Below, piece after piece: positions 11,769 to 58,575 of a DNA stretch of 64,000 nucleotides; the stretch's first letter is position 1, and every line of letters begins with the position of its first letter. Both the position numbers and the translations under genes were made by a program. Source of the stretch: a virus (lineage: Duplodnaviria; Caudoviricetes); IMG/VR virus record IMGVR_UViG_3300042402_003952; one strand, written 5' to 3'. The notes under the pieces are model-generated. The model had not been told where the DNA came from, did no database searches, and worked only from the letters and a program-made list of their open reading frames with translations.

Positions 11769-12419
11769 ATGACTTTTGATTATAAAAAGTATTCACTTGA
11801 AAATCTTGAGAACTGGATGCACGATGCGATGTCTTCTGGTGAAGCAACACCACAGGAGATTTATGATGTGATTGTTAGTGTGGTTAAGGAAAATTATTAC
11901 ATATACAAGCAAAAAACATCTCAAGCATATGAACTTCTTGCTCTTCTAAATGGTAATGGGCAGTCATATGAAGATGTAGTAAAGGAAAAAGAATACTATG
12001 AACCTTCTATGCCACCTTGGGGACATAGTGACCTTGAGTATGGACTTGCTAATTCATTCTTAACTCAAGATCGCAATAGTAATTTTCCAAATGAAAATAC
12101 TGTATGCGATAAAGATGACCCTTCACCTGAATGTAAAGGTGCTTGGAATGATTTTTGGCAAGAACACTATTATCCAGAAGAACATAAACTTCATGTAACT
12201 GAAGATGGAGACATTTATTCAGTAAAAGATAAAGTGGTGAAATGGCGACTTCCCGTTCAAGTAGATGGACTTTCTGGTGATTGTTTTGTAGAGTTCCCTG
12301 ATGATTTGCTAGAAGCAGCAAATCTAAAAGAAGGAGAAACTGTGGAATGGATTGACCGTGGAGACGGTAGTTTTGAATTGAGAAAAGTAACTAAACCCCT
12401 AGCAATGGATGAGTGTTGA
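11769..12419 (+). CDS. hypothetical protein with C-terminal AbrB/MazE/SpoVT-like domain
   Basis: FVEFPDDLLEAANLKEGETVEW...GSFELRK. Confidence 0.7.
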   Translation: MTFDYKKYSLENLENWMHDAMSSGEATPQEIYDVIVSVVKENYYIYKQKTSQAYELLALLNGNGQSYEDVVKEKEYYEPSMPPWGHSDLEYGLANSFLTQDRNSNFPNENTVCDKDDPSPECKGAWNDFWQEHYYPEEHKLHVTEDGDIYSVKDKVVKWRLPVQVDGLSGDCFVEFPDDLLEAANLKEGETVEWIDRGDGSFELRKVTKPLAMDEC

Positions 12420-22742: not shown

Positions 22743-22829
22743 TTTCTACGGGCATTAAAGGTCCAAACTTTAAGTAAGTCCCACACCCTCTATGCCTCTT
22801 AATAATGCACAAACAGGAGGGTCTCTTAT

Positions 22830-22902
22830 GGGGCAGCAGCATGACGGATCATGCACCATCCTTCTAAGATGTAAGATGGGGGTTCAAATCCCTCCTGCCC
22901 TG
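22830..22902 (+). tRNA. trnR: tRNA-Arg(UCU)
   Basis: acceptor GGGGCAG/CTGCCCT; D stem GCAT/ATGC; anticodon loop CTTCTAA; T loop TTCAAAT. Confidence 0.88.
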
Positions 22903-22919
22903 CTTTATTTTTTATTACA

Positions 22920-38561: not shown

Positions 38562-39092
38562 TTAAGATTTAGGTGAAGTATTCATTACTTTACGAAGTCC
38601 ATATTGATTGATATATTGTTCCAGTGCGCTTTCAATCATATTATTCATAAATTCATAAGAGTTAGGAACTGGTAATCCTTTTCTTATGCTTGCAGAATGA
38701 ACTTCTTTTACTTTTTCTAATATAAACTTATCTATTTCAAAACCATTTACAACTGCTTTATATTCTACATTTGCTTTTTTAGTTACCCATTCTAGATTTT
38801 CTAATCTATTATCTGCACTGTTTTTATTTCGATGATTTACTTCCATTGTAATATCTTCTGTTGGAATGAAAGCAAGAGCAACTAATCTATGAACTAGAAA
38901 GTTTCTTTTTTTACCGTATTTGTCAGATAGTAATACTGCTCTATATCCACAATTTCTTTTCTTCCAACCAGGAGAAAGTATCTTTGGTTTCTTATACTTA
39001 AAAGACCATATATTTCCTTCTGTGTCTACACCATATTCAGGGTAATCTTTTAAGTATTTTGTATCTTCAAGTTTCAGTAATCTGGTTTCCAT
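38562..39092 (-). CDS. NUMOD4-HNH homing endonuclease
   Basis: YPEYGVDTEGNIWS (NUMOD4); VHRLVALAFI..VNH.N....DNRLENLEWVT. Confidence 0.9.
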   Translation of the reverse strand: METRLLKLEDTKYLKDYPEYGVDTEGNIWSFKYKKPKILSPGWKKRNCGYRAVLLSDKYGKKRNFLVHRLVALAFIPTEDITMEVNHRNKNSADNRLENLEWVTKKANVEYKAVVNGFEIDKFILEKVKEVHSASIRKGLPVPNSYEFMNNMIESALEQYINQYGLRKVMNTSPKS

Positions 39093-39209
39093 TTGATTGA
39101 GTTTACCACTAAAAGGTATATAGTGGTAAATGCTATTTAAGAAAAGGTTAATATTGAGAATTACTATGATTAGAGATTGATAAATTGATATAATGGTAGT
39201 GTTATATTG

Positions 39210-39321
39210 TTAATACCTTAAAGAATGTGAGTTCTTATGATTAATACCTTAAAGAATGTAGTTAATACCTTAAGAAACCTTAAAGAATGTAGTTAATACC
39301 TTAAGAAACCTTAAAGAATGT
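39210..39321. repeat. iteron-like tandem repeats (ACCTTAA(A)GAA x6)
   Basis: ACCTTAA at 39215, 39246, 39267, 39277, 39298, 39308. Confidence 0.9.
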
Positions 39322-39347
39322 GAGTTCTTGTCGCGGTCTTGGCCTGC

Positions 39348-39405
39348 ATTATAACACATCAGCGCTGTTTTGTCAATACCCCCAGGACACTCCAAAAATC
39401 GGCAC
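39348..39405 (-). promoter_or_regulatory. early promoter element copy 19, reverse orientation, perfect sigma70 consensus
   Basis: minus strand TTGACA-17-TATAAT; palindrome AGGACA-N10-CGGCAC 30 nt from the -10 box. Confidence 0.85.
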
Positions 39406-39918
39406 ACCACTATAAAATTATAAACACTCCCAGACACGTCTATATGCCCCTGCAAGGCACTTATAAACTCATTTAGGGGTCAGAGTACCGAAGTGCTGGT
39501 TTTTGTGATTAAATCAGCATAGGATAGAACTACAAAAACCAGCAAGAACTTGTATAAATAAACATAACAATTCAATTCATAGTGCGAATTTGAACTTTCC
39601 TACGGGGTCAAAAGTCAAATTCTACAGAAGCGAAAAGTTAATAAAACATTTGATAATTTATAGAATCAAAGTTCTCATAGGGTCTTTATAAAAACCCTCT
39701 CTCCAAAGTCAATGAAATAAAACCATTGATGGAGAAAACAAATACTGAAAGAGATTATCAAAACTGAATACTCACCGAAACCCAATAAAAGCACATAATT
39801 CCTGCTTTAGATTCTTATGCGAATTTCTAAAGATGTCAGGAAGGTTTTATACTATCAAAAATTATTTAATTATCAAGGTTTTATCAGAACTCTTTTATTC
39901 TATCACATAATCTTCTAG

Positions 39919-39947
39919 TTGACAAGTACTCATAATGTCGCTAGAGT
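39919..39947 (+). promoter_or_regulatory. sigma70-type promoter
   Basis: TTGACA-17-TAGAGT. Confidence 0.6.
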
Positions 39948-40044
39948 ATGTTTGTTGCTGTTAAAGAGAAATAATAACATCAAGAACTTAAAGACCCGTC
40001 CGAAGGACAACACGACCGAAGGGAGTGTTTCTATAAGGCACTGG

Positions 40045-40073
40045 TTGACAATTATAATAAGACCTGATAGAAT
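40045..40073 (+). promoter_or_regulatory. sigma70-type promoter directly upstream of the 72-bp array
   Basis: TTGACA-17-TAGAAT. Confidence 0.75.
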
Positions 40074-40096
40074 ATAACAATCAGAACAAACAAAAG

Positions 40097-40339
40097 TCAT
40101 TCGTGATTAGATAAGATTCGTATCATTATAAAAGACACAAGCACTAATGATAAGAATGAATCACAAAGTCATTCGTGATTAGATAAGATTCGTATAGAAA
40201 AATCATAATACTTAAGACTGGCAATAAAGAACTCATAAGTTCATTCGTGATTAGATAAGATTCGTATAGAAAATTGATAATACAACACAACTGTGAGATT
40301 ATAATCACAAAGTCATTCGTGATTAGATAAGATTCGTAT
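40097..40339. repeat. CRISPR-like array: four identical 27-nt repeats, 45-nt spacers, 72-bp period
   Basis: TCATTCGTGATTAGATAAGATTCGTAT at 40097, 40169, 40241, 40313. Confidence 0.9.
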
Positions 40340-40423
40340 AGAGATTCGATCTTATCAGAATCTCAAAGAAATCATAAGAAGAAAATATTCGTTTATATCT
40401 CAAGTTCGTTGTGGGGCAAATAC

Positions 40424-40452
40424 TTGACGGGCACTGAAAGGTCTGGTAGAAT
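40424..40452 (+). promoter_or_regulatory. sigma70-type promoter
   Basis: TTGACG-17-TAGAAT upstream of ORF 40493. Confidence 0.7.
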
Positions 40453-40492
40453 TAACCAGTAGAGTTTATTCGTTCTTTCGGTTCTTTAACTT

Positions 40493-40660
40493 ATGGCAAC
40501 TTCTTACCTTAAAGCACAAAGGAATAAGTATCGTATCACTCTGGAATTAAACGTGAATGAAGATTTTAATCCTCATCAGATTAACTGGAAGAAACTATTC
40601 GGGTTAGACAGTAAAGAATCAGTGAAGAGTTATGTAGAAGATCTCTCCGTGCCCTGGTAA
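40493..40660 (+). CDS. 55-aa conserved cyanophage-type protein (below track cutoff)
   Basis: hand translated MATSYLKAQRNKYRITLELNV.EDFNPHQINWKKLF... Confidence 0.65.
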   Translation: MATSYLKAQRNKYRITLELNVNEDFNPHQINWKKLFGLDSKESVKSYVEDLSVPW

Positions 40661-41265
40661 TTAAGAATACAATCCAACATTCCTCTGTTGTATTATACTT
40701 TCGTGGAGTAAGAAACATCGCCTGATAGATGTTTCGTTTATTATTATTACTTTGTCTGATTGTTTTTATCTTTAATGGCAACTTAATTCTTTATACTTAT
40801 TATTATTCGTCGTTAATTGGCGGCAGTTAGTATAAAGAATAGTCAGTTCTTATTAAATAAGTAGAGTTTTTTCGTGCTTAAGTAATAAGAACTTCGTTGT
40901 TTTATTCTAATAACACAGTGATTTGGTGGCAGTTAGTATAAACAACACGAATAACTAATACTTATTCGTTGTCAGTTGTTTATTCGTTATAGCAGTTATT
41001 TTATTTTATTTGTTATTGTTTATATCGGGCGTTGCCCCCGTATATAAAAACGCCCCACTACCCTAACCTACACTGTATGTCTTTTTCGACCTATCTATCA
41101 CTCTCATAAAAAAAAAATTCCATAAAAAAAAATGTCTCCAAAAAGAAAAGTAAATTGCCACGGATGGGGAATCTTCGGAGGTAAGCACAAGAAAAAGAAA
41201 AGTTGCGCAACAGGTATCTTCAGAACTCCTGCTCAAAAAAGAGCATCCTCAAAAAGAAAGAAGAG

Positions 41266-41409
41266 ATGAAAAAATCAGCACCATATTGGAATTTTTGGAG
41301 AGTGATACTTGCAGGATGGATGATCAGATACCCAAAGCAAATGAGTAGAATTTCATTAACATCTCTGGGCATTTTGATTAGTCTGATATATAATGCAATG
41401 GTAAAATAA
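41266..41409 (+). CDS. small membrane protein
   Basis: MKKSAPYWNFWRVILAGW... Confidence 0.55.
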   Translation: MKKSAPYWNFWRVILAGWMIRYPKQMSRISLTSLGILISLIYNAMVK

Positions 41410-43742: not shown

Positions 43743-43763
43743 AGACAGAATTACTTATTTTTC

Positions 43764-44165
43764 ATGCCCGCTGAAAGGATAAGCAAGTCATTTAAAGATA
43801 TTAGTTTATCCTTTCAGGTTAATCCTCTGAATTATGATCTGATTGCGATTAAAAATGAGACGGCTATTGCCAGATCACTTCGCAATCTTGTTTTAACTCA
43901 ACCGGGTGAAAGATTTTTTAACCAAAATCTTGGTTCTAGGATTAATCAGTCTCTTTTTGAAATGCTTGATGAAATAAGTGCCTCTGTTATAAGAGACGAA
44001 ATCAAAAATACAATTGAAAATTATGAACCAAGAGTGAGTTTAATTGACGTTGAAGTAACTCCAAATGATGAAAATTATGAATTCAATGTAACTATTAAAT
44101 ATTACATCGTTGGTGCTGATGTATTACCTCAACAATTATCATTTGCATTACAACCAACACGATAA
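43764..44165 (+). CDS. gp25: baseplate wedge subunit gp25
   Basis: FKDISLSF..NP...AIARSLRNLVLT..GERFF...GS...YEPRV. Confidence 0.92.
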   Translation: MPAERISKSFKDISLSFQVNPLNYDLIAIKNETAIARSLRNLVLTQPGERFFNQNLGSRINQSLFEMLDEISASVIRDEIKNTIENYEPRVSLIDVEVTPNDENYEFNVTIKYYIVGADVLPQQLSFALQPTR

Positions 44166-46079
44166 ATGGCACTAGTCAACTTCACCAATCTAGATTTCGA
44201 TCAAATTAAGACTTCTCTTAGAGATTATCTAAGATCGAATTCAAATTTTACAGACTATGATTTCGAAGGATCCAATCTTTCAGTCATACTAGATGTTCTT
44301 GCATATAATACATATATTTCCTCATATAACGCTAATATGATTAGCAATGAGGTGTTTATTGATAGCGCGACTCTAAGAGAAAATGTAGTATCTCTTGCAA
44401 GAAGCATTGGATATGTTCCGAGATCCAGAACTGCATCAAAAGCCAATGTTTCTTTCTTTGTAGATACATCTACCACTACTTCCCCACAAAAACCTCTTAC
44501 ACTTACTCTTAAAAAAGGAATTGTTGCGACTTCAACCGGAACATTTAGTGGAATAAGTTACGTTTATTCAATTCCAGATGATATTACCGTTCCAGTCAAC
44601 AATGGTATTGCCGAATTTAATAATATAGACATTTATGAAGGAACATATATTACTGAGACATATACTGTAGATTCATTAACGCCTAATCAAAGATACATTT
44701 TAAATAATGAAAATGTTGATAGTTCTTTAATTAGAGTAGATGTAAGAGATGGTCAACTTGGACCAAGAAAGAAATACATTCAATCTAATAATATTTTATC
44801 AGTAAATTCTGATTCAAAAATATTCTTTATTCAAGAGATTGAAGATCAAAGATATGAGTTATTATTTGGCGATGGAATACTCGGAAGAAAACTTGTTAGT
44901 GGTGAAATAGTAGATATTTCTTACATTATAACAGGTGGAGAAACTGCAAATGGAGTATCTTCATTTACTTTCAATGGAACAATTGTTGATAATTCTTCAT
45001 TTAATATAATTAGCGGGATTTCTTTAATTACTACAAATATTGTTTCTGGTGGAGGTAGAGAAATTGAATCCGTTGATTCAATCAAAAAATATGCAACTAA
45101 AATCTATGCAGCACAAAATCGTGCCGTAACTGCAAGTGATTTTGAGGCGATTATACCTCAGATATATCCAGAGACGGAATCGGTTTCTGCTTTTGGTGGG
45201 GAAGATTTGAGTCCTCCACAATACGGAAAGGTTTTTATTACAATTAAACCAGAAAATGGATTTTTTGTTCCTAATAGTATAAAGGATTCTATCAAAGAAA
45301 AATTAAAGCAATATTCGGTTGCTGGAATTATTCCAGAAATAATGGATCTTAAGTACCTTATACTAGAGATAAACTCTACAATTTACTATAATAATAATCT
45401 AGCACCTTCATCAGAATATATTACAAGTACAGTTTCTAATAATATCAAAAAGTATGCAAATTCATCGGAGTTGAATAAGTATGGAGCAAGGTTTAAGTAT
45501 AGTAAATTCCTAAAGATTATTGATGATGGTCATGAATCAATCACGTCCAATATTACAACTGTTCAAATGAGACGCGATTTAAAACCAGAGTTAAATAGAT
45601 TAGCGACATATGAAATATGTTTTGGAAATGAATTTCACATAAAAGATCTCAGAGGATTTAATATTAAATCTTCTGGTTTTAAGATTCCTGGTGTACAAGA
45701 TACAGTTTACTTAAGTGATATTCCAAATGAAGGTAAACTTACTGGCACTATTTTTATTTTCAAATTAGATTCAATTCAGGGGTCCAAAACAATTAAAGCA
45801 AATGCAGGAACAATAGATTATGTAAAGGGCGAAATAAACTTAAGTGCAATCACAATTGAATCTACGAGTAAAGATAGTGGCGGAGAACCAATTATTGAAA
45901 TCTCTGCAATACCAGAATCAAATGATGTAATCGGACTACAAGATCTTTATTTGAATTTAAGCATTGATAATGTAACGTTAAATACTTTATCAGACAAAAT
46001 ATCTTCTGGAGAAGATCCTTCAGGGTCTACCTACACAAAAACAGCAAGCTATAGCAACGGAACAATCGTAAGAGAATAA
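44166..46079 (+). CDS. gp6: baseplate wedge subunit gp6
   Basis: LDFDQIK..L...FTDYDFEGS.L..ILDVLAYN; AQNRAVTA.DF. Confidence 0.95.
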   Translation: MALVNFTNLDFDQIKTSLRDYLRSNSNFTDYDFEGSNLSVILDVLAYNTYISSYNANMISNEVFIDSATLRENVVSLARSIGYVPRSRTASKANVSFFVDTSTTTSPQKPLTLTLKKGIVATSTGTFSGISYVYSIPDDITVPVNNGIAEFNNIDIYEGTYITETYTVDSLTPNQRYILNNENVDSSLIRVDVRDGQLGPRKKYIQSNNILSVNSDSKIFFIQEIEDQRYELLFGDGILGRKLVSGEIVDISYIITGGETANGVSSFTFNGTIVDNSSFNIISGISLITTNIVSGGGREIESVDSIKKYATKIYAAQNRAVTASDFEAIIPQIYPETESVSAFGGEDLSPPQYGKVFITIKPENGFFVPNSIKDSIKEKLKQYSVAGIIPEIMDLKYLILEINSTIYYNNNLAPSSEYITSTVSNNIKKYANSSELNKYGARFKYSKFLKIIDDGHESITSNITTVQMRRDLKPELNRLATYEICFGNEFHIKDLRGFNIKSSGFKIPGVQDTVYLSDIPNEGKLTGTIFIFKLDSIQGSKTIKANAGTIDYVKGEINLSAITIESTSKDSGGEPIIEISAIPESNDVIGLQDLYLNLSIDNVTLNTLSDKISSGEDPSGSTYTKTASYSNGTIVRE

Positions 46080-46080
46080 G

Positions 46081-49000
46081 ATGGCAGATACAAGAATTAA
46101 AATTGGTTCAATCGTACAAAATCAACTTCCCGATTTTGTACTAGAAGAATATCCTCTTGTTAGTGAATTCCTTAAGGAGTATTACAACTCTGTAGAAGGT
46201 CAAGGATCAACACTTGATATTCTTCAAAATATTGATCAATATTTAAAAGTTGATGAACTTTATAAATCAACATTTGCCAGAACAATTACTGTAAAACCAC
46301 AATCTCCACAAACTTTCTTTCAAATTAGTGGTGGTTATTCGGTAAATGATCTTATTGTCTTAAAAAATGGCACTAAATTACTGAAAGATACTGACTATTT
46401 TGCTACAGATGGATCTTCAGTAATACTAGTTACTCCTGCTGTTCCCGGTGATGTTTTAGAGTTTGTTGTAGAATCTCCATCTTCAACTATTTTGACAAGT
46501 GATGTTGAATTTGTAGACACTACAATTAACGTCGCATCTACATATGGATTTCCCGATACCAATGGAATTATCCAAATTGATTCGGAAATCATACTTTATT
46601 CATCAAAAACTTCTACTTCCTTCAAAGATTGTACTAGAGGGTTTAGCGGTATAACTTCTTATAGAGCAAGTAATCAACCAGATCAACTCGTATTTTCAAC
46701 ATCTGAAATTGCAGAACATACCTCAAAAACAACTGTTGCAAACTTAAGTTCTTTATTCTTAAAAGAATTTTTAACAAAAATAAAATCACAATTAGTTCCT
46801 GGATTTGAAAATAGAACGCTTGCAGAAGGTCTGGATGAAAGAAATTTTATTAAAAATGCAAAGAGTTTTTATTCATCAAAAGGAACTGATGATTCCTACA
46901 AATTACTTTTCAAGGCATTATTTGGACAGGAAGTAAGTGTAATTAAGCCAAGAGATTATTTACTCAAACCATCTGATGCTCAATATAGAGTTGTTAGAGA
47001 TTTGGTTGTTGAGTCTATTTCTGGAGATCCAATGGATCTTGAGAATAGGACTTTATATCAAGACCAAGTTGGAGGCTATAATAAGGCTTATGGATCTGTT
47101 ACTAAAGTTGAGAAAATTCAAAGATCCGGAAGAACCTTTTATGTCTTAAGTCTTGACTATGATTATAATAAAGATCTTACTGTTAGTGGATCTATTTACG
47201 GAAACTTTTCAATACATCCGTCTACGAAAGTAATTGCAGGAGTATCTACTAGTAGCACTGTTATTGATGCTGATTCTACTATTGGATTTCCCTCAAATGG
47301 ACAATTAGATTTTAATGTAAATGGAATTGATTATACTATTTCATATTTCAACAAAAATACTACTCAATTTTACATTACATCATCACCTTCTATTTCTATT
47401 CCAACAGGAACTGATCTAAAATTAAATCAGTATGCTTATGCTAATGTTGGTGTTTCAACTGTAAAGGTTAGAATAACTGGTGTTCTATCTGAAGTCGATT
47501 ATGACTCAAGAAACACATTAATGAAAAAAGGCGACTCACTGAGTGCGGTTTCTTTAGGATACAATCCAAAAGGTATATTAGCAAATAATTGGATTTTTAA
47601 TCTTGCTACAAAGTATAACGTCAAAACTATTAGTGGACCTAATTCTTCTAATCTAATAACAAATGTTTTTACTTACGAAGTAAGTACTTACGATCCACAT
47701 TCATTTTCACTTGGCGATAATTTAAGATTAATAAATCCAAATGGCGATAAAGATAATTATAAAGTTGTAAGTGTTAATAATGAATATTCGATTGTAGTAG
47801 AAGGAGTAAAGATTAATAATCTTACCCTGAAGTATGTAATTGAGAGGATTTTGAAAAAACCAAAATTCACCAATTACACAGATGTCAATTCATACTCTGC
47901 TAATATTCAAAATGTCTATTTAAACAATGAAGACGAAATATATGTCACATCCAATTCATTGCCAAATTATTTGGACGAAGATGTAAATACAAAGAATACT
48001 AATGTTATTTTCTCTGGAATTTTTAATGGAGAAACTTTAGATTTAAGTTCTGGAAATCCAACCAATTTACATGGATTTATCACTGGTGATGCTATTGTTT
48101 ACAGTAGAAATGCTTTTAATCCAGATGAATACTTGAATATTTCTGAAAAAACTTATTTTGTAAAAAGAGTAGATAATACTACAATAAAAATTGCAAGCAG
48201 TAAAACGGATTTATATAAAAATAAATTTGTAACTGTATCTGGAACTGCAAAAAATAATATTTTTAAAAGATTAAAATTTAATATATCACCACTATCGCAG
48301 CAAGGTTATATAAAAAAAATATCAAAACCTGTTTCTGCAGATGTAGTATCAGAGACTCCAACAGGTCCAGTTGGAATATTTGTGAATGGTGTAGAAGCTT
48401 ATAGTTATAAATCTACAGATAAAGTTTTTTATGGTGGAATTCAATCCATAAACGTCATTGGTGGCGGAGAAAATTATGATGTAATTAACACACCTACTGT
48501 ATTGGTAGAAGATAGTGTTGGTTATGGTGCATCTGCTTTTGCTCACGTTGTTGGAAAATTAGAAAAAATAGATGTAATAGATGGTGGATTTGATTATCTT
48601 GAAGATCCAATTATAACCATAACAGGTGGAAATGGATATGGAGCATATGCTAAACCTAATATGACTTCATTTAGGCATAGTGTATCATTCAATTCAATTC
48701 AAAGTTCTGGATTTGTTAATCTAACTACTAATACAATTGGTTTTTCATCTTATCATAAATTTAGAGATTATGAAAGAGTTACATATCTAACTGAGGGACA
48801 AACTGGAGTTGGCGGATTATCAACAAATGCACAGTATCATGTTTCTGTTCAAGATGCATATAATGTTAGGTTGCATAAAACTTTAGATGATGCTGTTTCT
48901 GGTATAAACACAGTAGATTTAACTTCTTATGGTGTTGGAATTCATCTAATAGAATCCACACTATCAAAGAGAAAAATATCAAATGTTAGTGTATTGAATT

Positions 49001-52000
49001 TAGGTTCTGGATATACTAATAAAAAAATTTCTTGCGCCATCTCCGGAATTCACACTTCATCAAATACTATTAAAATAATTGATCATGGTTATAAAACTGG
49101 AGAAATTGTTGTATATAATTCGACAGGTTCTGCAGTTGGCGGATTATCAAATAATCAATCATATTATATTACCGCAGTAAATAAAGATGAATTCAAATTA
49201 TCTCAAGTTGGAATTGCTACTACAAATAAAGATTTTTATTTTAAAACCAAACAGTTTATAAATCTGACTTCGGTAGGATCTTCATACCATACATTTAACT
49301 ACCCCAACATAGTTGTAAGTGTATCTGGAAAAATTGGTGTATCTACACTAACTGGACAAGATTTTAGTGCTAAACTACAACCAAGTTTTAAAGGAGAAAT
49401 TAGCAACATCTTTATTAAAGATTCTGGTGTTGGATATGGGTCTTCTGAAATCATTAATTACGAAAGACAACCAAAAATTACTTTGGGTATTGGATCAGGA
49501 GCTCAACTTTCACCCGTACTTAATGGAGGAAGAATAACAGAAGTTATAGTTCTCAATAGTGGTAATAATTATACTTCCGCACCAAAAATTGAAGTTTTGG
49601 GAATAGGAACCGGTGCAGTTTTAACTCCTATTGTAAATTCTGGTAAAATTGTTGAAGTAAAGGTTGTTAATGGCGGAGTCGGATTTAATACTACGGGAAC
49701 TTTCTTAAATATAGTTCCTTCTGGAAATGGATTCTCACACGAAGTAAAAATAAAATCTTGGACTATTAACACTGTAGAAAGATATTTAAATGATGAACAA
49801 ATTGTGGATGATGATGGTGTAGTTGAGGTCTCTTCATATACTGTAAGTGGTTCACAATATTGTCATTTATATGCACCAAGAAAGTTAAGAAGAAGTGTAT
49901 TTGGTATTGATTATGTAAATGGGAACAAAGTTTATGTACCAGATTTAAAATTAGTAAACAATAGAGAGGTAGTTTCTACCACACACTCACCTATAATTGG
50001 ATGGGCATACGATGGAAATCCAATTTACGGACCATATGGTTATAGCGAAAAAACAGGAGGATCTGTAAGAGAACTTACATCTGGATATATTTCATTGCCT
50101 TCTAGTGATAGACCAGATCCAATTTCTACTACAGGACAAAGAATATATCCAGAAGGATTTTTTGTTGAAGATTATCAATATAATGCAAGTGGAGATTTAG
50201 ATGAGCATAATGGAAGATTTTGTGTAACACCAGAGTATCCAAACGGAACTTATGCATATTTTACTACAATTAATAATGGATTAACAGAAACTGCCGGTGT
50301 CTTCAGGAATTACAAAAAACCAGTTTTCCCTTACATAGTTGGTAATACTTTTAAATCTACTCCAATTGATGTAAATTATGATAGAAACATAAACCAAAAT
50401 AATTTTAATTATACAGAATCTGGAATTTGGAGGAACACTAAACCATACAATCTAAAAAGCAATAACTCTGGATATGATTTCGTATTTGATCCATTAAAAG
50501 TTAGAAAACCAGTAGTTACTGTAAGATCAACTTCTGTTGGACAACTATCTAATGTTGGAGTTGTTACTGGAGGTTCTGGATATAAAGTAGGAGATACTAT
50601 CAATTTTAATAATACTAATTCTGGCGGGTTCAATGCTTACGGTCAAGTATCGTTTGTAAAAGGAAAAGAAATAAAATCAATTAGTTTTGCTTCTACCTAC
50701 ACTCAAGGAGTTGAATTTTATCCATATAATAATGGAAATAAACTTGTAGGATTTTCTTCATTACCACATAGTTTTATAAGCAATGATATTGTTTCAATAT
50801 CTGGTTTAAGCACTTCTGTTAAGATTTTTAATTCGTTTTTTGTAGTTGGAGTTAATACTCACACTTTAGTTCTATCAAAAGCAGTAGGAAATTCTACATC
50901 TACCGGAATTGTCACTTATTTTGATATAAATGGATCTTTAGACTTCTCATATATTAGAGAAAATGACGTTTATAAAGTTGAAAATGAAAAGGTTAAAGTT
51001 CTTTCTGTAGATGAACTTTCCTCTAGAATTAAGGTTTTAAGAGGATATGATTCAACTGTAGGAGTTTCTCATACAGCATCTACGGTTTTATATGAACAAA
51101 CAAGAAAATTTACCATAGGATTTAGAAATAATAACAGCAATTTTAACTTTAATTTTAATAGAGAACTATATTTTAATCCAACAGAGTCACTCAGTCTTGG
51201 TACGACTTCTGGAGTGGGAATCGGATCAACTTTATATTTTTCAAATCCAGGTGCTGGAATCACTAATATTTTTGTTCCGACTAAAACAATATATCTACAA
51301 TCACATTCATTAAACACTGGAGATGAGTTAATTTACTCTAGTAATGGAGGATCTCCATTCTTTGTTTCTGATGATGGCGCTTCAAGTTTCCAATTACTTG
51401 ATAATCAAGTAATTTATGTTGCAAAAGTATCTGATGATTTAATCGGTATTTCTACAAATAAAGTTGGATTGGGATCAACAGGATCATTTGTAGGAATAAA
51501 CAGCAGTATCTTAACATCAACAGTTTATTTTACAAATGTAGGATCTGGTGTTAATCACAGTTTTAAGACAAATTACTCCAATGTTCTAACTGGAGAAGTT
51601 TTAAGAAACACAGTTACTGTTGCCGCGGCTTCAACTCATGGATTAGAAAGAGGAGATAGTATTTTTATTGATTCTCTTCCAGGAATTACCACCAATGTAG
51701 TAATTAAATATAATGATGAAAACAAAAGACTTCTTGTTAACCCAAGATCTTTCACTGCATCTGCAGTAAATTTATCAGACAATAAGATATACATTGAAAA
51801 TCATGAGTATACTACAGGACAAAAAGTAGTTTATAATGCGACAACTTCAATTGGAGGTTTGGAAAATGATAAAATTTATTATATTGTGAGATATAATAAA
51901 GATTACATTAGATTATCTTCAAGTTATTACAATGCGACTAAAGAAGTTCCAGAAATTATAGACTTTACGAGTACTTCTGAAGGATCTATTTCATTAGTCA

Positions 52001-55000
52001 ATCCTAGTATTCCTATTATTCCCAATCAAACAATAAATTTTGATCTATCAGATAGATCACTTTCCTTTACAAAGAATGCTAATTTATATTCAGCATTTGA
52101 TTTTGTAATCTATTCTAATTCTAATTTTACTAAGGTTTTTGATAAAATTGAAGGATCTTCTAATTTTAGTGTAATAAAAACAGGAAAAATTGGTATTGAT
52201 TCTACTTCTTCTGTCAAATTAACTACTTCTGGCGTAGAGACAGATTTGTACTATCGTTTGGTTCCTGTTGATTTGTTCAACAACTCAACGGTTAAAAAGG
52301 AAATTATAATAGACGATGAGAATGTAGATTCTAATAACACATTAAAACTAACAAGAAGTTCATACTCTGGTTTTCATAATGTAGTTGGAGTTGGACAAAC
52401 GACTTTCACATTCAATATAATTGATTATCCAGAAAAAACATCCTACACAAGTTCTGATGGACTTTTTGAATATTTTACAGACTCTAAAACAGCAATTGGT
52501 GCAATTAGTGAAATTGATTTATTGTCCGGCGGTAAAAATTATCAGTCTTTACCCGGAATAACTTCAGTATTTTCAGAGATTGGAAGAGATGCAATTTTAA
52601 ATCCAAACACTAGTTCAATTGGAAACATTAATCGAATTGACATTGATGATATTGGATTTGATTATCCATCAGATATTACTCTGAGTCCATCTTCCAAACT
52701 ACCTCAAGTATTAAAAGTTAAACCACTTTCCACTTTTGATAACATCGGCGTTTCTTCTGTTGGAATTAACTACACATTATCTCCAAATTTAGTAGTTATT
52801 GATTCAGTTACAAATAAAGTCGTTACTGATGTTGATTTGAAATTTAATATAAAAACAAAAGAAGTTGATATTATAAAAAATACTGATGGAATTAATAATG
52901 CAACACCACGTATTGTGCCTATTAATAACTCAAATGGAGTATCCATTGACAATGTAACATTTAACAATTCCACAAAAGATGTAACTATAGAACTTGGTGT
53001 AAACTATAGTTTTGGTCAGACTTTTCCATTTAATGTTGGCGATAGAGTTCTGGTTGAAAATGTAAGTGTTGGCATAGCAACAACTGCAAAGGGATATAAC
53101 TCAAAGAATTATGATTATGCATTATTTACATTAACTTCAGTAAGTCCGCAATATGGAGGATCTGGAGCTTCTATTACATATAATCTTTCAAATTACTTAT
53201 CTGGATCAGAAATTCCCGGAACATTTAATGCAGAAAATTCTGCAGGCATCGTTGTTCCTGAAAAATACTTTCCAGTTTTTAATCCTGTATTGAAACCAGG
53301 TGCATTTATAGTAGGTGAAAAGGTTACTAGCGAATCTTATTCTGGAACTGTATTAGAGTGGAATTCTGACACAGAACAGATTAAAGTTTCTTCTTCAGAT
53401 TCATTTGATCAAGGTAAATTTATTAGAGGAGAAACTTCAAACGCCAAAGGAACTATTGGAGATGTGCAAGATTTTAATGCTGTCTATTTAATAGGCCCAT
53501 CTGCAGTAGTGAACAAGGGGTGGAATAAAGAAACTGGATTCTTAAATAATGCACTACAAGTAACTTCAGATAATAATTATTATCAGTATTTTTCATATTC
53601 TATTAAATCGAAAGTTGATTATGAAACTTGGAATGAATCTATTGGTAATTTAAACCACACAGTTGGTTTCAAAAAATTTGGTGACTTGGAAATTGAGTCT
53701 ATTGATGCATCTTTTACGGGAATATCTACTGCACAAAACGAAGGAAGTTTTATTGGCATATCAGATTTAATTCAAGAAATAGATCTAAATTGTGTTAATG
53801 ATTTTGATCTTGCTAGAGAAAAAACTATAAAAATTTCTGATAATTATATTTCAAATGAAATTATTCTCAATACAGTCTCTCTCCAAGATGAATTCCAATC
53901 ACTTGGAAATAGAGTTTTAATGATTGATGATTTCAGTGATCAGTTTTCAAATGTTCCTGCAGAAAATAACTATGCAAATGCTGATACCTTTAGACTATCT
54001 GATATAAGATCCAAAAAATATGTAACTTATGTAAGAGACAAAAGATTTACTGGTCTGAGGCAGGTCTATCTAGTTTCATTATTACATGATGGACTAGAAG
54101 GTTATTTGAGTCAATATGCAAGAGTTGAAACTAATAGAGATTTAGGATCTTTTGATTTTTCTATTTTTGGATCTGAAGGAACTTTAAGATTTTATCCATT
54201 GAACTTCTTAGTTAATGATTATGATATTAGTGTGATGTCTTATGGAATTACTGATATTATTTCTGGAATTGGAAGTACATCTCTTGGAAATATTGTTGAA
54301 TTAAAATCATCCACTGCGACTATACCATCAGGAACTTCTTCACAAACAACTATTGTTGGTATCGGATCAACATATAGAGCATCTAAAGTATTAGTAGAAC
54401 TTTCGTCCACAAATGGAGAATATTATGAATTTAACGAGTTGACTCTTATTCACGATGGAAATAATGTAAGTATTCTTGAATATGGACAACTTTCAAACGA
54501 AAGTAGAGTTAGATATGTTGGAGATGGAATAGGTTCTTACACCGCTTATATTTCTGGATCCAATATAAACTTAGATTTTACTCCAAATGTTGGATTAGGA
54601 ACAACATATATTGCCAATACAGTTAGAGTTTCTGTAGCAAGCACTATAGGAACTAATACGGGATCATTGACATTTAATACCGGTCAAGTCCAGTCCAGTT
54701 ATGTTTCAATATCATCGTCTCCCACACCAACACAAAATAAAATTTCAACTTATAGTTTAGATCATTCTGGAGCATATTATTTTGTAGTAGTTGAGGACAA
54801 AACAAATAATACATATCAAGCATCAGAGATTACAGTTGTTGATGATGATACTGATGCATATCTTGCTGAGTTTGGTATAGTTGAGTCTTCCTCTGGACTA
54901 GGTACAATGGGAGTTGGTGTTGGTGCTACAGGAACCAGTTTGTATTTTACACCAAATCCAAATATAAATGTTGATGTTAGAGTTTATCAGCACGCTATGC

Positions 55001-58000
55001 GCGTTGTTGATGTAGATAATTCTTTTGAATTCTATAGTTTGGAAAATGCAAGAATTGATTCCAAGTTTACAGGTTATCAAGGGACTTACAATTCGATTAA
55101 AAAATCATTCAACCTATATCATCAACAAAATCCTATTTTCCAAAGAGTATTTAATGCTTCAGATTCTACAATTGTAGATATTACAAAAGATACAATAAGA
55201 ATTCCTAAGCATTATTTTGTTACTGGAGAAGAATTGGCATATAGTGAAGGTGATGGATCTCCAATTGGGATTGCAACCACAACTATCACTGGAATAGGAA
55301 CAACTGATAAACTACCATCAAGTGTTTTTGTTGTTAAAGTAAATGATCTTAATATTAAATTAGCATCTTCTGCTCAAAATGCACTAAAAACAGTTCCAGA
55401 AGTGTTTAGTTTGACTTCTGTTGGTATTGGCACTACTCATAAATTAACTTCATTAAAGCAGAATGCAAAGTCTTTAATTTCTATTGATAATTTGATTCAA
55501 ACGCCAATTGTATCAACATCAACTACTACATTTCTATCGAGGTCATCTTCATTAAATGAGAATACTATTACTCTTTCTGGAATAACTTCGATATTTGGAG
55601 GAGATTTGCTTAAGGTTGATAATGAAATTATAAAGGTCAATACAGTTGGATTTGGAAGTACTAATGTTCTTCTAGTTGATAGAGGTTGGATGGGAACTGA
55701 TCCAGCAAACCATTTAAATGGATCTCTAATAACAAAAATTACTGGAAACTATAATATCATTGATAACACTATACATTTCGTAGAAGCACCTTATGGAAAC
55801 TCTCCAATAGGAACAATCACAAATAAACCAGATTCTAGAGACTATACTGGAATTACGACAAGATCCACATTTAGTGGAAGAGTTTTTTTAAGATCTGGTC
55901 TTGAAAATGGAACTCTTGATTCATATGACAAAAATTATATTTTTGATGGATTATCTGAACAATTTACTGGAATTCAAACACAATTTAAATTAACTTCAAA
56001 TAAATCTGATGTAAGTGGAATTTCTACAGGATCTATAATTCTTCTTATTAATAATATATTCCAAGAACCACAAAGACTTGGAACTATTAGCATTCAAGGT
56101 GATTATAAGATGTCCGATGGCGCCGGAATAACAACATTAGCATTCACCGGAAGTATTTCATCTACATCATATGATGTTAATACTGCAAGTATACCTAGAG
56201 GTGGAGTGATTGTTTCCGTTGCTTCTTCTCAAGGATTTGGATATCAACCGCTAGTATCTGCAGGAGGAACATCAATAGTTTCAGTTGGAGGAACAATTTC
56301 TTCAATTAGTGTTGGAAATATTGGATCTGGATATAGGGGTCAATCAAAGTATGAAATAATTACTCAAACCTCCACTTCAATTAGTGCTGGATCTACCATT
56401 ATTCCTATCAATAATTCAAATGGTGTTATTCAAAAATTGAGTTTATCTTCATCTAATACTATTAATATAGGATCTACATTCATAGACGTTCCCATAGTTG
56501 GTGTAGGAATATCACATGTATTGATAGGTAGTGGAAATACATCATCACAGGGAATCACTGCAGATTCCACAGTATTGATAAGTCTGAATTCACCAACTAT
56601 TGGGTTTGTGGATGTTGGAGTAAAAACTGCAAGCATTGGAAATGTTAATTATGAATTTATTGGATTTGCAACCATTTCTTCTGGACATGTTTCCAATAAT
56701 GTTACTATCACTAATCCAGGTTCAGGATATACTTCATCCAATCCTCCTGTAGTAGTATTTGATTCTCCATTAAGTTATTCAAATATTCCTCTAATATATG
56801 CTCCTGGATACTCGGGTATAGGAACTGCAGCAACTGTAAACATTGTTGTTGGTCAGGCATCTAGTATTACTGATTTTGAAATTAAAAATCTTGGATATGC
56901 TTATAAGGTCTCGGAGGTATTAACTGTACCTACTGGAGGATTGACTGGAATACCAACTGATCCTTCTAAACCATTTAGAAATTTTGAATTATCAATTGAT
57001 CAAGTATTTTCCGATGCGTTTTCTGCCTGGTCAGTAGGAGACCTTCAAGTAATTGATAAAATAGAAAACTTATTTAATGGAACAAGAAGAACATTCCCAA
57101 TAAAGATAAATGGAACACAAACTTCAATTAGAGCAAGAGTTGGATCAAATATTGATGTTCAAGCGACTTTATTGGTCTTTATCAATGATGTACTACAAGT
57201 TCCAGGATCTGGATATATCTTCAAAGGTGGTAGTATTATAACATTTACAGAAGCTCCAAAAGAAGGAGATAGTTGTAAGATTATATTCTATAAAGGAACC
57301 GAGTCTGTAGATGTTCTTTTTGCTGATATTTTAGAAACTATAAAAATTGGAGATGATGTAAGACTGAATAGTGATAACGTTCTACTTAAAGAAGATGACA
57401 GACTTGTTACCGAAATAGTTGCTTCTGATACCATTCAAACAAATTCATATCCGGGACCAGGATTAACTCTTGATGAAGATCTATCTAGACCACTTATTTG
57501 GTGTAGACAAACTGAGGATAAGATTATTAATGGAAAGGAAATTGGAAAGGATAGAGAGTTATATGAGCCACTCATCCAACCACTATCAAATATTATTAGT
57601 AACGTTGGTATTGGTTCAACTGAGATATTTGTACAAAGCGTAAAGATATTCTTTGATGATTCTAGAGAAAACGCAACAATACCATTCAAGACGAAGATTT
57701 TAGTAACTTCTCAGGACACTATTGTAGGTGCTTCAGCAACTGCAATAGTATCTGCCGCAGGAACAGTTTCCTCTATTTCTTTATCTAATAGTGGATCTGG
57801 ATTTACAACTACACCTTCAGTTACTATCTCAAATCCAATTGGATTTGGAACTTCTGTAGGAATAGGAAGTACTGCTTTAGCGATTTCTTCTATCACTTCT
57901 GGTATTGTTACTTCATTTACAATTACAAATCCTGGATTCGGATATACTTCATCCAAACCACCTCAAGTTTTAATTGAGTATCCAGCACTTAATTATGAGA

Positions 58001-58575
58001 AAATTGAAGATGTTACTTATGAAGGTGATTTTGGAATTATAGTTGGCATAAAAACTACCACTGTTGGTGTTGCATCCACTGGAATTGTATTTGATTTATT
58101 TGTTCCAACAGATTCTTACTTAAGAAATACTAACATTAATGTTGGAATTGCAACGACTGGTATTAGTGGTATTAAGACAGATTATTACTTTACAGTTTTC
58201 AATTCTAATATTGGATTTGGTATTACTTCTCTAGATTCCAACTCATCAATTGTTGGCGTTGGTACAACTTGTTTAGATAATGTTTATAAGGTTGCATCAG
58301 TTTCTATAGCATCTACAAGCGTTCCTGGAGTCGGCGTAACTAACGTTTCAAGAGTTGTGGTTAGTGTCTTGAATTATAATGGATTGACTGGAACTGGATT
58401 TAGTAATTTCTATGGTGAATTTAGTTGGGGCAGAATAAGTGTTCCTACAAGAAAGAATCCTACAATCTTTACAGCATATACTCGAAATGGCATATCTGGT
58501 CTTTCTACATCACCAATTGTTCAAAGATTAAATCCATTGAGATACGTTGGATATTCAACTACATTACAACAATAA
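46081..58575 (+). CDS. gp7: giant baseplate wedge initiator / structural protein (gp7-like), 4164 aa
   Basis: position between gp6 and gp8; QLPDFV.EEYP...FLK.YY, FY.SKGT..SYK.LF..LFG; repeated GxGY beta modules. Confidence 0.8.
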   Translation: MADTRIKIGSIVQNQLPDFVLEEYPLVSEFLKEYYNSVEGQGSTLDILQNIDQYLKVDELYKSTFARTITVKPQSPQTFFQISGGYSVNDLIVLKNGTKLLKDTDYFATDGSSVILVTPAVPGDVLEFVVESPSSTILTSDVEFVDTTINVASTYGFPDTNGIIQIDSEIILYSSKTSTSFKDCTRGFSGITSYRASNQPDQLVFSTSEIAEHTSKTTVANLSSLFLKEFLTKIKSQLVPGFENRTLAEGLDERNFIKNAKSFYSSKGTDDSYKLLFKALFGQEVSVIKPRDYLLKPSDAQYRVVRDLVVESISGDPMDLENRTLYQDQVGGYNKAYGSVTKVEKIQRSGRTFYVLSLDYDYNKDLTVSGSIYGNFSIHPSTKVIAGVSTSSTVIDADSTIGFPSNGQLDFNVNGIDYTISYFNKNTTQFYITSSPSISIPTGTDLKLNQYAYANVGVSTVKVRITGVLSEVDYDSRNTLMKKGDSLSAVSLGYNPKGILANNWIFNLATKYNVKTISGPNSSNLITNVFTYEVSTYDPHSFSLGDNLRLINPNGDKDNYKVVSVNNEYSIVVEGVKINNLTLKYVIERILKKPKFTNYTDVNSYSANIQNVYLNNEDEIYVTSNSLPNYLDEDVNTKNTNVIFSGIFNGETLDLSSGNPTNLHGFITGDAIVYSRNAFNPDEYLNISEKTYFVKRVDNTTIKIASSKTDLYKNKFVTVSGTAKNNIFKRLKFNISPLSQQGYIKKISKPVSADVVSETPTGPVGIFVNGVEAYSYKSTDKVFYGGIQSINVIGGGENYDVINTPTVLVEDSVGYGASAFAHVVGKLEKIDVIDGGFDYLEDPIITITGGNGYGAYAKPNMTSFRHSVSFNSIQSSGFVNLTTNTIGFSSYHKFRDYERVTYLTEGQTGVGGLSTNAQYHVSVQDAYNVRLHKTLDDAVSGINTVDLTSYGVGIHLIESTLSKRKISNVSVLNLGSGYTNKKISCAISGIHTSSNTIKIIDHGYKTGEIVVYNSTGSAVGGLSNNQSYYITAVNKDEFKLSQVGIATTNKDFYFKTKQFINLTSVGSSYHTFNYPNIVVSVSGKIGVSTLTGQDFSAKLQPSFKGEISNIFIKDSGVGYGSSEIINYERQPKITLGIGSGAQLSPVLNGGRITEVIVLNSGNNYTSAPKIEVLGIGTGAVLTPIVNSGKIVEVKVVNGGVGFNTTGTFLNIVPSGNGFSHEVKIKSWTINTVERYLNDEQIVDDDGVVEVSSYTVSGSQYCHLYAPRKLRRSVFGIDYVNGNKVYVPDLKLVNNREVVSTTHSPIIGWAYDGNPIYGPYGYSEKTGGSVRELTSGYISLPSSDRPDPISTTGQRIYPEGFFVEDYQYNASGDLDEHNGRFCVTPEYPNGTYAYFTTINNGLTETAGVFRNYKKPVFPYIVGNTFKSTPIDVNYDRNINQNNFNYTESGIWRNTKPYNLKSNNSGYDFVFDPLKVRKPVVTVRSTSVGQLSNVGVVTGGSGYKVGDTINFNNTNSGGFNAYGQVSFVKGKEIKSISFASTYTQGVEFYPYNNGNKLVGFSSLPHSFISNDIVSISGLSTSVKIFNSFFVVGVNTHTLVLSKAVGNSTSTGIVTYFDINGSLDFSYIRENDVYKVENEKVKVLSVDELSSRIKVLRGYDSTVGVSHTASTVLYEQTRKFTIGFRNNNSNFNFNFNRELYFNPTESLSLGTTSGVGIGSTLYFSNPGAGITNIFVPTKTIYLQSHSLNTGDELIYSSNGGSPFFVSDDGASSFQLLDNQVIYVAKVSDDLIGISTNKVGLGSTGSFVGINSSILTSTVYFTNVGSGVNHSFKTNYSNVLTGEVLRNTVTVAAASTHGLERGDSIFIDSLPGITTNVVIKYNDENKRLLVNPRSFTASAVNLSDNKIYIENHEYTTGQKVVYNATTSIGGLENDKIYYIVRYNKDYIRLSSSYYNATKEVPEIIDFTSTSEGSISLVNPSIPIIPNQTINFDLSDRSLSFTKNANLYSAFDFVIYSNSNFTKVFDKIEGSSNFSVIKTGKIGIDSTSSVKLTTSGVETDLYYRLVPVDLFNNSTVKKEIIIDDENVDSNNTLKLTRSSYSGFHNVVGVGQTTFTFNIIDYPEKTSYTSSDGLFEYFTDSKTAIGAISEIDLLSGGKNYQSLPGITSVFSEIGRDAILNPNTSSIGNINRIDIDDIGFDYPSDITLSPSSKLPQVLKVKPLSTFDNIGVSSVGINYTLSPNLVVIDSVTNKVVTDVDLKFNIKTKEVDIIKNTDGINNATPRIVPINNSNGVSIDNVTFNNSTKDVTIELGVNYSFGQTFPFNVGDRVLVENVSVGIATTAKGYNSKNYDYALFTLTSVSPQYGGSGASITYNLSNYLSGSEIPGTFNAENSAGIVVPEKYFPVFNPVLKPGAFIVGEKVTSESYSGTVLEWNSDTEQIKVSSSDSFDQGKFIRGETSNAKGTIGDVQDFNAVYLIGPSAVVNKGWNKETGFLNNALQVTSDNNYYQYFSYSIKSKVDYETWNESIGNLNHTVGFKKFGDLEIESIDASFTGISTAQNEGSFIGISDLIQEIDLNCVNDFDLAREKTIKISDNYISNEIILNTVSLQDEFQSLGNRVLMIDDFSDQFSNVPAENNYANADTFRLSDIRSKKYVTYVRDKRFTGLRQVYLVSLLHDGLEGYLSQYARVETNRDLGSFDFSIFGSEGTLRFYPLNFLVNDYDISVMSYGITDIISGIGSTSLGNIVELKSSTATIPSGTSSQTTIVGIGSTYRASKVLVELSSTNGEYYEFNELTLIHDGNNVSILEYGQLSNESRVRYVGDGIGSYTAYISGSNINLDFTPNVGLGTTYIANTVRVSVASTIGTNTGSLTFNTGQVQSSYVSISSSPTPTQNKISTYSLDHSGAYYFVVVEDKTNNTYQASEITVVDDDTDAYLAEFGIVESSSGLGTMGVGVGATGTSLYFTPNPNINVDVRVYQHAMRVVDVDNSFEFYSLENARIDSKFTGYQGTYNSIKKSFNLYHQQNPIFQRVFNASDSTIVDITKDTIRIPKHYFVTGEELAYSEGDGSPIGIATTTITGIGTTDKLPSSVFVVKVNDLNIKLASSAQNALKTVPEVFSLTSVGIGTTHKLTSLKQNAKSLISIDNLIQTPIVSTSTTTFLSRSSSLNENTITLSGITSIFGGDLLKVDNEIIKVNTVGFGSTNVLLVDRGWMGTDPANHLNGSLITKITGNYNIIDNTIHFVEAPYGNSPIGTITNKPDSRDYTGITTRSTFSGRVFLRSGLENGTLDSYDKNYIFDGLSEQFTGIQTQFKLTSNKSDVSGISTGSIILLINNIFQEPQRLGTISIQGDYKMSDGAGITTLAFTGSISSTSYDVNTASIPRGGVIVSVASSQGFGYQPLVSAGGTSIVSVGGTISSISVGNIGSGYRGQSKYEIITQTSTSISAGSTIIPINNSNGVIQKLSLSSSNTINIGSTFIDVPIVGVGISHVLIGSGNTSSQGITADSTVLISLNSPTIGFVDVGVKTASIGNVNYEFIGFATISSGHVSNNVTITNPGSGYTSSNPPVVVFDSPLSYSNIPLIYAPGYSGIGTAATVNIVVGQASSITDFEIKNLGYAYKVSEVLTVPTGGLTGIPTDPSKPFRNFELSIDQVFSDAFSAWSVGDLQVIDKIENLFNGTRRTFPIKINGTQTSIRARVGSNIDVQATLLVFINDVLQVPGSGYIFKGGSIITFTEAPKEGDSCKIIFYKGTESVDVLFADILETIKIGDDVRLNSDNVLLKEDDRLVTEIVASDTIQTNSYPGPGLTLDEDLSRPLIWCRQTEDKIINGKEIGKDRELYEPLIQPLSNIISNVGIGSTEIFVQSVKIFFDDSRENATIPFKTKILVTSQDTIVGASATAIVSAAGTVSSISLSNSGSGFTTTPSVTISNPIGFGTSVGIGSTALAISSITSGIVTSFTITNPGFGYTSSKPPQVLIEYPALNYEKIEDVTYEGDFGIIVGIKTTTVGVASTGIVFDLFVPTDSYLRNTNINVGIATTGISGIKTDYYFTVFNSNIGFGITSLDSNSSIVGVGTTCLDNVYKVASVSIASTSVPGVGVTNVSRVVVSVLNYNGLTGTGFSNFYGEFSWGRISVPTRKNPTIFTAYTRNGISGLSTSPIVQRLNPLRYVGYSTTLQQ

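Follow-up and report, generated by a model that had tools for sequence, protein, structure and literature searches.

T4-like cyanophages count among the most abundant lake and ocean viruses; to our knowledge, their origins of replication have not been identified, nor have the factors that set the timing of their early transcription. Several described systems resemble, each in part, the repeat array reported here. In the parC/ParR system of plasmid R1, small repressors bind cooperatively to a promoter-embedded operator/centromere array; arrays of this type consist of contiguous 10–11-bp units, and their binder is encoded next door. CRISPR arrays consist of near-identical direct repeats of 23–50 nt with intervals of similar length that are acquired spacers, and they come with a cas gene nearby or a matching host repeat. 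Iteron clusters belong to plasmid and phage origins such as R6K gamma, P1 oriR and lambda ori (PMC3016281). T4 oriE likewise combines evenly spaced direct repeats with an early-mode promoter, although even there a link between the iterons and origin activity is not established (PMC3016281). The cyanobacterial DnaA-box consensus is TTTTCCACA (PMC4674748), and the only cyanophage origin mentioned in reviews is a predicted theta origin for Syn9 (PMC2984593). The literature that we searched describes neither a TTCGT array nor DnaA boxes in cyanophages.

The DNA analysed here, which we call the window, is a 64-kb stretch (64,000 nt) of a T4-like cyanomyovirus with a viral contig of ~218 kb, found in lake and freshwater metagenomes from 17 studies. 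The array sits in a 2-kb gene-poor stretch (39093–41130), the largest gene-poor region of the window, flanked by an early small-ORF cluster and the baseplate genes. It comprises the following elements.

40093–40123, + strand: core of unit 1 (AAAGTCA, then TTCGT-N12-TTCGT, then AT), exact in the window
40165–40195, + strand: core of unit 2, 94–100% identical to close relatives
40237–40267, + strand: core of unit 3, an exact repeat, 94–100% identical to close relatives
40309–40339, + strand: core of unit 4, 100% identical in five of five relatives compared
40124–40164, 40196–40236 and 40268–40308, no strand: linkers 1, 2 and 3, 41 nt each, free in sequence
40381–40411, + strand: degenerate unit 5, with a -10-like TTATAT (TATAAT in relatives)

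The original prediction described a promoter followed by four identical 27-nt repeats at a 72-bp period, with three differing 45-nt intervals and no cas genes, and this description holds throughout. Exact search finds four + strand copies of the 27-mer with no mismatches, starting at 40097, 40169, 40241 and 40313, where none is expected by chance (100 dinucleotide-preserving shuffles); Tandem Repeats Finder and a second repeat search agree on the 72-bp period; the three 45-nt intervals all differ from each other; and the promoter, TTGACA-17-TAGAAT at 40045–40073, scores 11/12. Nor did any of 27 scanned ORFs, nearly all those of at least 150 aa in the window, match a Cas family. The repeat itself resolves into a simpler motif. 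TTCGT occurs 44 times on the + strand of the window, 18 of these between 40100 and 40983, and within the array its start-to-start spacings run 17, 55, 17, 55, 17, 55, 17, 55, 17. Each unit is a bipartite TTCGT-N12-TTCGT, with two boxes 17 bp apart, inside a conserved core of about 31 nt (roughly 30) that extends from -7 to +23 relative to the first TTCGT. The degenerate fifth unit keeps the exact 72-bp register, with TTCGT at 40388 and 40405; most lineages compared end their array with a unit that reads TTCGT(G/T)TATAAT...TTCGT. The core motif is confined to this one place in the 64-kb window. A coding repeat is ruled out: the core carries stop codons (TAG, TAA) in all three + frames, the array is crossed by no long ORF, and the one ORF that reaches into it, 54 aa on the - strand, covers just a part.

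The array lies among a set of predicted transcription signals, as follows.

39799–39849, + strand: terminator-like hairpin followed by GGTTTTAT, -12.7 kcal/mol, z = -2.45
39919–39947, + strand: early-type promoter P1, TTGACA-17-TAGAGT, 10/12, preceding the array
40045–40073, + strand: leader promoter P2, TTGACA-17-TAGAAT, with TG before the -10 box
40424–40452, + strand: conserved early-type promoter of the 55-aa gene, TTGACG-17-TAGAAT, with TTCGT boxes at 40405 and 40469
40493–40660, + strand: 55-aa early gene, phrog_12516, always directly after the array

The final TTCGT spacing of the array ends 19 bp ahead of the -35 box of the 55-aa-gene promoter, and the further TTCGT at 40469 falls inside the 5' UTR of that gene. 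Relative to this promoter the last array unit lies at about -75/-58 and the extra box at about +8, and the layout of array and promoter is alike across lineages. Boxes that flank both the -35 element and the predicted transcription start are an arrangement typical of control at the DNA level. On the upstream side, the predicted start of P2 lies ~16 nt ahead of the first core. An equivalent of P2 stands at the identical distance from unit 1 in the locus L235, and similar promoters are present in L213 and L215, so that with the window an early promoter fires directly into the array in four lineages. A P1/stem-loop cassette (39860–40096) is common to the window, L213 and L215, its P2-proximal part is also found in L235, and it is missing from the closest relatives, which have a terminator hairpin and a bare TATAAT in place of P2. 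The terminator-like hairpin itself (39799–39842) ends the upstream unit and in the closest relatives directly adjoins the array. The stretch that follows P1 (39919–40040) contains two CCGAAGG mini-hairpins and a U-rich tract, resembling a promoter/stem-loop cassette.

Relatives were gathered by a search with an alignment of the 55-aa protein, which returned 80 loci. In 45 non-redundant loci the array lies directly upstream of the 55-aa gene, with 2–6 full units each and 135 distinct units altogether; the exact 27-mer with the same period is found in 18 IMG/VR contigs. Of 123 distances between adjacent units, 115 fall within 69–73 bp, the commonest being 72 bp (65 cases), and the inner TTCGT–TTCGT spacing is 17 bp in 120 of 123 units. 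Across the 135 units, information content is limited to positions -7 to +23, whereas linker identity is 0.34 both within and between genomes, about that of random AT-rich DNA. Core variants among relatives include GATTAGATAAGA, GATTAATAAGTC and TATTAGATAAGAT. All units share the orientation of the downstream 55-aa gene. In relatives with sequences of 156, 105, 71 and 33 kb the first half of the motif occurs at a single locus, and a metagenome scan with a 14-base degenerate pattern gave chance single matches only.

The comparison with close relatives separates cores from linkers. Cores 2–4 are 94–100% identical and the core of unit 1, degenerate in those relatives, 81–84%, as against 69–80% for the linkers and 80–88% for third codon positions of the 55-aa ORF. 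Linker 2 aligns with that of a relative with eight gap columns, yet measures 41 nt in both genomes, a case of compensating indels, and one relative (L017) has exactly one 72-bp unit fewer. By this pattern of substitution, the ~30-nt core is under purifying selection and the linker is free in sequence and fixed in length, a combination expected of a spatial constraint between sites on duplex DNA. At 10.5 bp per turn, a period of 69–73 bp does not amount to a whole number of turns, and it fluctuates by ±2 bp; the conserved property is therefore not strict same-face phasing. No 10–11-bp periodicity was found in linker composition either. The decayed tandem duplication that had been suggested for the units is supported: Tandem Repeats Finder aligns them to each other with 74% matches, and from their alignment they clearly derive from tandem duplication of a 72-bp segment.

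The same comparison bears on the intervals, which the original prediction had taken for possible spacers of a guide or decoy RNA array, naming spacers alignable across relatives as the result that would speak against it. They are alignable and in the same order in 13 relatives, and in all close relatives they are positional orthologues that have diverged by point mutations and length-compensated indels. The 'spacers' are inherited, not acquired, and the array is therefore not a CRISPR array. Searches for a partner of either part of the unit gave the same picture: the 23-nt core was not found, as an exact sequence, in any of 185,579 prokaryote species genomes, and blastn of 39800–40700 against 50,697 phage records, the only records searched for protospacers, returned no match.

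As for function, we put forward, as a plausible if still tentative reading of the sequence, that the array is a lattice for cooperative protein binding, one that surrounds the 55-aa gene's early promoter, intercepts transcription starting at P2 and serves as a timing switch within a control hub. The array would act as double-stranded DNA, presenting five phased bipartite sites (TTCGT-N12-TTCGT within a ~30-bp core) to a putative sequence-specific DNA-binding protein. These sites would have been born by tandem duplication of the 72-bp unit, after which only the cores and their centre-to-centre distance were retained. Since the lattice runs into the 55-aa-gene promoter and places boxes on both of its sides, cooperative occupancy would build one higher-order nucleoprotein complex enclosing the promoter, and the same complex may also block or receive transcription from P2. 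Its most likely job would be to switch the early transcription unit on or off in time. The setting would fit such a role: a gene-poor control region that in relatives also holds an origin-like module of DnaA boxes, AT-rich DNA and a backward promoter. We thus infer protein binding, cooperativity and an effect on transcription from the repeats, their conservation and spacing, their restriction to one locus, their register with the promoter and the lack of CRISPR and RNA-structure features. Points against this reading are the non-integral, variable period, the absent 10–11-bp periodicity of the linkers, the promoters that fire into the array in four lineages and the relatives' RNA contigs over units 3–5. 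The alternative offered by the original prediction, phased protein-binding sites of the origin, gains support as regards the binding sites, whereas the evidence at hand does not establish their assignment to an origin.

In kind, the array is a familiar object, an iteron or operator array, with an unusual bipartite and widely spaced geometry. It shares with parC/ParR-type arrays direct repeats on both sides of a promoter, a single occurrence per replicon and an expected cooperative wrapping of that promoter. It differs in that its units are 72 bp apart instead of contiguous, and in that the neighbouring 55-aa protein does not co-vary with it. This protein is just as conserved in phages without the array, and for that reason is unlikely to be the specificity factor. 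Its AF2 model (pLDDT 79) has almost no secondary structure, no match was found in the PDB by sequence or by fold (Foldseek), and in the Atlas it falls into unnamed viral clusters only. The protein has no recognisable fold, and given its conservation in array-free phages we dropped it as a candidate binder. Taken as a clade-wide cis element with a sharply defined 31-bp bipartite core and a fixed lattice locked to an early promoter, the array offers in that core a concrete bait for finding its binding protein.

Elsewhere in the window, a 216-aa protein (11769–12419, + strand) carries a MazE/AbrB-like domain at its C-terminus (E = 1.3e-4, slightly under the Pfam cut-off), whose placement resembles that in cyanobacterial cyAbrB regulators. 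The protein is encoded in every TTCGT-type contig that is long enough, as well as in S-SRM01 and in the genomes G016 and G017; it is absent from six marine isolates and has no sequence match in the PDB. G016, which also encodes it, has no TTCGWGAT cluster. As a binder of the array it was set aside and kept only as a weak lead.

The gene-poor region in which the array lies is built differently in different lineages. Marine relatives that have the 55-aa gene and no TTCGT array, among them the isolates S-SM2 and S-SCSM1, carry clusters of perfect DnaA boxes 200–540 bp upstream of the gene, beside a block of 88–90% AT; such boxes number 22 in 22 kb, against 3 for the reversed control. In the 1500-bp flanks of at least seven TTCGT-type loci (L196, L207, L222, L235, L240, L242 and L245), one to three perfect DnaA boxes likewise lie 0.6–1.1 kb to the left of the array, and most of these loci also have the 88–90% AT block and a backward consensus promoter. 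The whole module, with AT block, two or three boxes, short TAAATG-type repeats and backward promoter, is present in L207 (a close relative), L222 and L235. Two to three perfect DnaA boxes of the form TGTGGAAAA, spaced by 21 bp, are found 0.6–0.75 kb left of the array in L207, L222, L235, L242 and L245. This module of the relatives resembles an origin of replication. Mutual exclusion, with the TTCGT array taking the place of the DnaA boxes, is ruled out by the at least seven loci that carry both, and for the same reason the array is an additional module and not a substitute. The array and the DnaA-box/AT-rich/backward-promoter module share the control region ahead of the 55-aa gene in T4-like cyanophages; the array differs from that module in having another motif and in standing apart, 0.6–0.75 kb to its right.

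The window has neither the AT block nor the boxes: no DnaA box with up to one mismatch was found between 34907 and 43369, and the corresponding stretch holds two small ORFs and a gene for an HNH endonuclease, now the target of the retained backward promoter.

38562–39092, - strand: HNH endonuclease gene, downstream of the retained backward promoter
39376–39348, - strand: backward promoter, 12/12, now aimed at the HNH gene

In the leader of this promoter (39205–39330) lie repeats with a 31-bp period (AATACCTTAAAGAATGT...); by eye, the AATACCTTAAAGAATGT repeats resemble a 35-bp set (AATACCTTATAAATGCC...) located after the DnaA boxes of L207. Still other lineages have different repeats at the same place. 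L272 carries TTCGAGAT at a 12-bp period upstream of the 55-aa gene, one base from TTCGTGAT, and S-SRM01 (NC_070963.1, 85569–91007) has three clusters of ATCTCGACGAG within ~5.5 kb, the remainder of its 241 kb being almost free of this sequence. L252 is a further lineage with different locus-specific repeats upstream of the 55-aa gene. A single locus has in this way been rebuilt lineage by lineage, with DnaA boxes, 12-bp TTCGAGAT iterons, 72-bp TTCGT units or a homing endonuclease.

This setting makes it natural to ask whether the units are themselves iterons of a replication origin, with a phage initiator on the TTCGT pairs, activation by the flanking early promoters and unwinding nearby; the array would then be an alternative or supplement to the DnaA-box module that this phage has lost. 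This is the main rival to our reading, though we consider it rather unlikely. It is favoured by the single-copy cluster of direct repeats in the largest gene-poor region, by the DnaA boxes to the left in seven or more related loci of the TTCGT type and by the other locus-specific, iteron-like repeats that other lineages have at this very place. Like iteron origins, the array is a non-coding repeat cluster at a single locus, flanked by promoters and, in relatives, with DnaA boxes and an AT block nearby. Its period of 69–73 bp, however, contrasts with the 20–22 bp typical of iterons (~22 bp in the classical ones), and its ~30-bp core is bipartite. Furthermore, no AT-rich unwinding element adjoins the array and no DnaA boxes accompany it in the window, no initiator gene is recognised next to it, the neighbouring small ORFs matching no DNA-binding or Rep family, and in relatives the array is parted from the DnaA module by a late-type promoter unit and a terminator. 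In none of the three sequences analysed for cumulative GC skew (G002, S-SM2 and the window) does the curve turn at the locus on a genome scale; the skew rises monotonically across these genomes and is uninformative for the start of replication.

The analogy with T4 oriE leads to a similar conclusion. The baseplate genes to the right of the array are the following.

43758–44165: gp25, baseplate region
44166–46079: gp6, baseplate wedge
46081–58575, + strand: ORF of 4164 aa between gp6 and gp8, in the position of gp7 and far larger than T4 gp7

The gene for gp8 is also encoded in the window, after the 4164-aa ORF. Both the array and T4 oriE have evenly spaced repeats and an early-mode promoter a few kilobases upstream of the baseplate wedge gene 6 (3.8 kb upstream of gp6 in the window, 1.7 kb in T4), a resemblance that speaks for the iteron reading. 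The T4 repeats, however, are 12 nt in length and lie inside the coding region of gene 5 at a 24-bp period, whereas the array is intergenic; homologues of RepEA and RepEB are absent from the window (best tblastn E 0.63). The analogy is positional only, and the origin reading is weakened by the T4 iterons being coding repeats with no established link to origin activity.

A related idea joins the origin question to our preferred lattice: the lattice may be where a phage-encoded initiator or regulator assembles, each unit contributing roughly one superhelical turn of 72 bp wrapped around the early promoter; in phages that have lost the DnaA boxes, the lattice would serve as the replication origin or its enhancer. 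We regard this version as unlikely. If true, the array would be the first defined origin element of a T4-like cyanophage, with an unprecedented iteron geometry.

The array could instead act as RNA, in a leader or stand-alone transcript whose five UUCGU-N12-UUCGU modules capture an RNA-binding protein or host RNA, as a sponge or decoy would. The array may be transcribed. P2 fires into it in the window, L235, L213 and L215, all units are oriented like the downstream gene, and RNA-library contigs of relatives from two studies cover 40243–40342 (run X19) and 40255–40404 (run X20). Contigs of relatives spanning units 3–5 thus come from two metatranscriptomes, and another begins at 40472, near the 55-aa-gene promoter; in each case carried-over DNA is a possible source. 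These contigs are relatives' pieces over part of the array and the 55-aa gene, and the parts that they leave uncovered carry no weight. We sought signs of RNA structure by folding both strands, by Rfam and by hairpin tests on the 135 units. The 341-nt array folds with no excess stability (z of -0.04 for the + strand and -1.49 for the - strand), and Rfam gives nothing relevant on it at E ≤ 1. The small stems pointed out earlier do exist in the sequence, but they lack both significance and conservation: z is -0.91 for the trailing hairpin and -0.96 and +0.30 for the unit hairpins, and 6 of 135 units offer a pairing partner of the AATCAC/GTGATT type, with no enrichment relative to a reversed-arm control. 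A structured RNA was rejected on these tests. The closest relatives, moreover, have a terminator and no good promoter ahead of the array; it is hard to see what a fixed linker length would mean for a sponge RNA; some TTCGT boxes precede the -35 box and fall outside a transcript from the 55-aa gene's own promoter; and no perfect complement of the 23-nt core was found in the 185,579 species genomes. We regard an RNA role as improbable, and retain it at that level because of P2 firing into the array and the contigs of the two metatranscriptomes, whose possible origin from carried-over DNA is part of that estimate. A related proposal, one sigma-70 promoter per unit, was rejected: with the -10 hexamer sought 16–18 bp after the TAGATA of each core, matches of at least 5/6 are found in 20 of 135 units, compared with 0–24 at other linker offsets.

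Quite improbable, too, are two further readings, a functionless tandem duplication in neutral decay and a DNA decoy that soaks up a host DNA-binding protein with no local regulatory consequence. The origin of the units by duplication of a 72-bp segment and the variable copy number of 2–6 would suit such a view. Neutral decay, however, would erode cores and linkers alike, whereas in 45 loci the cores are kept and the linkers are randomised with their length held; and a pure decoy would not need the register with the promoter. That the locus is a CRISPR-like mini-array, or an RNA anti-CRISPR loaded by host Cas or another RNA-guided system, can be dismissed as extremely improbable: it shares four exact 27-nt repeats, constant 45-nt intervals, a 72-bp period and a promoter leader with CRISPR arrays, cas-less phage mini-arrays and RNA anti-CRISPRs, a geometry that alone is no evidence for a CRISPR array, but unlike theirs its intervals are vertically inherited in the same order and, at 74% matches, mutually similar within the array, its repeat is non-palindromic with no conserved hairpin, and the searches described above found no target, cas gene or host repeat.

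Several minor observations concern the surroundings of the array. To its left, a T4-late-type TATAAATA at 39551–39558 is followed by conserved hairpin-like sequences and then by the terminator-like hairpin; the stretch 39551–39849 has no ORF of 40 aa or more and could be a small late transcript of ~290 nt, and an RNA-library contig of a relative spans 39572–39839. To its right, 40660–41130 is a conserved, non-coding, T-rich stretch with extra TTCGT boxes. It contains second copies of the 55-aa-gene leader (40860–40879, corresponding to 40458–40477) and of the start of that gene (40775–40793, corresponding to 40493–40511), and GGCAGTTAGTATAAA occurs in it twice, at 40812–40839 and 40918–40945. 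The 45-aa ORF that follows (41132–41269, + strand) encodes an extremely basic peptide with many K and R residues; it has no family match, and its tblastn matches are confined to the closer relatives of the window. Finally, far from the array, an Rfam match to the abiF RNA (22786–22822, + strand; 42 bits, gathering score 37) lies directly upstream of a tRNA-Arg gene (22830–22903).
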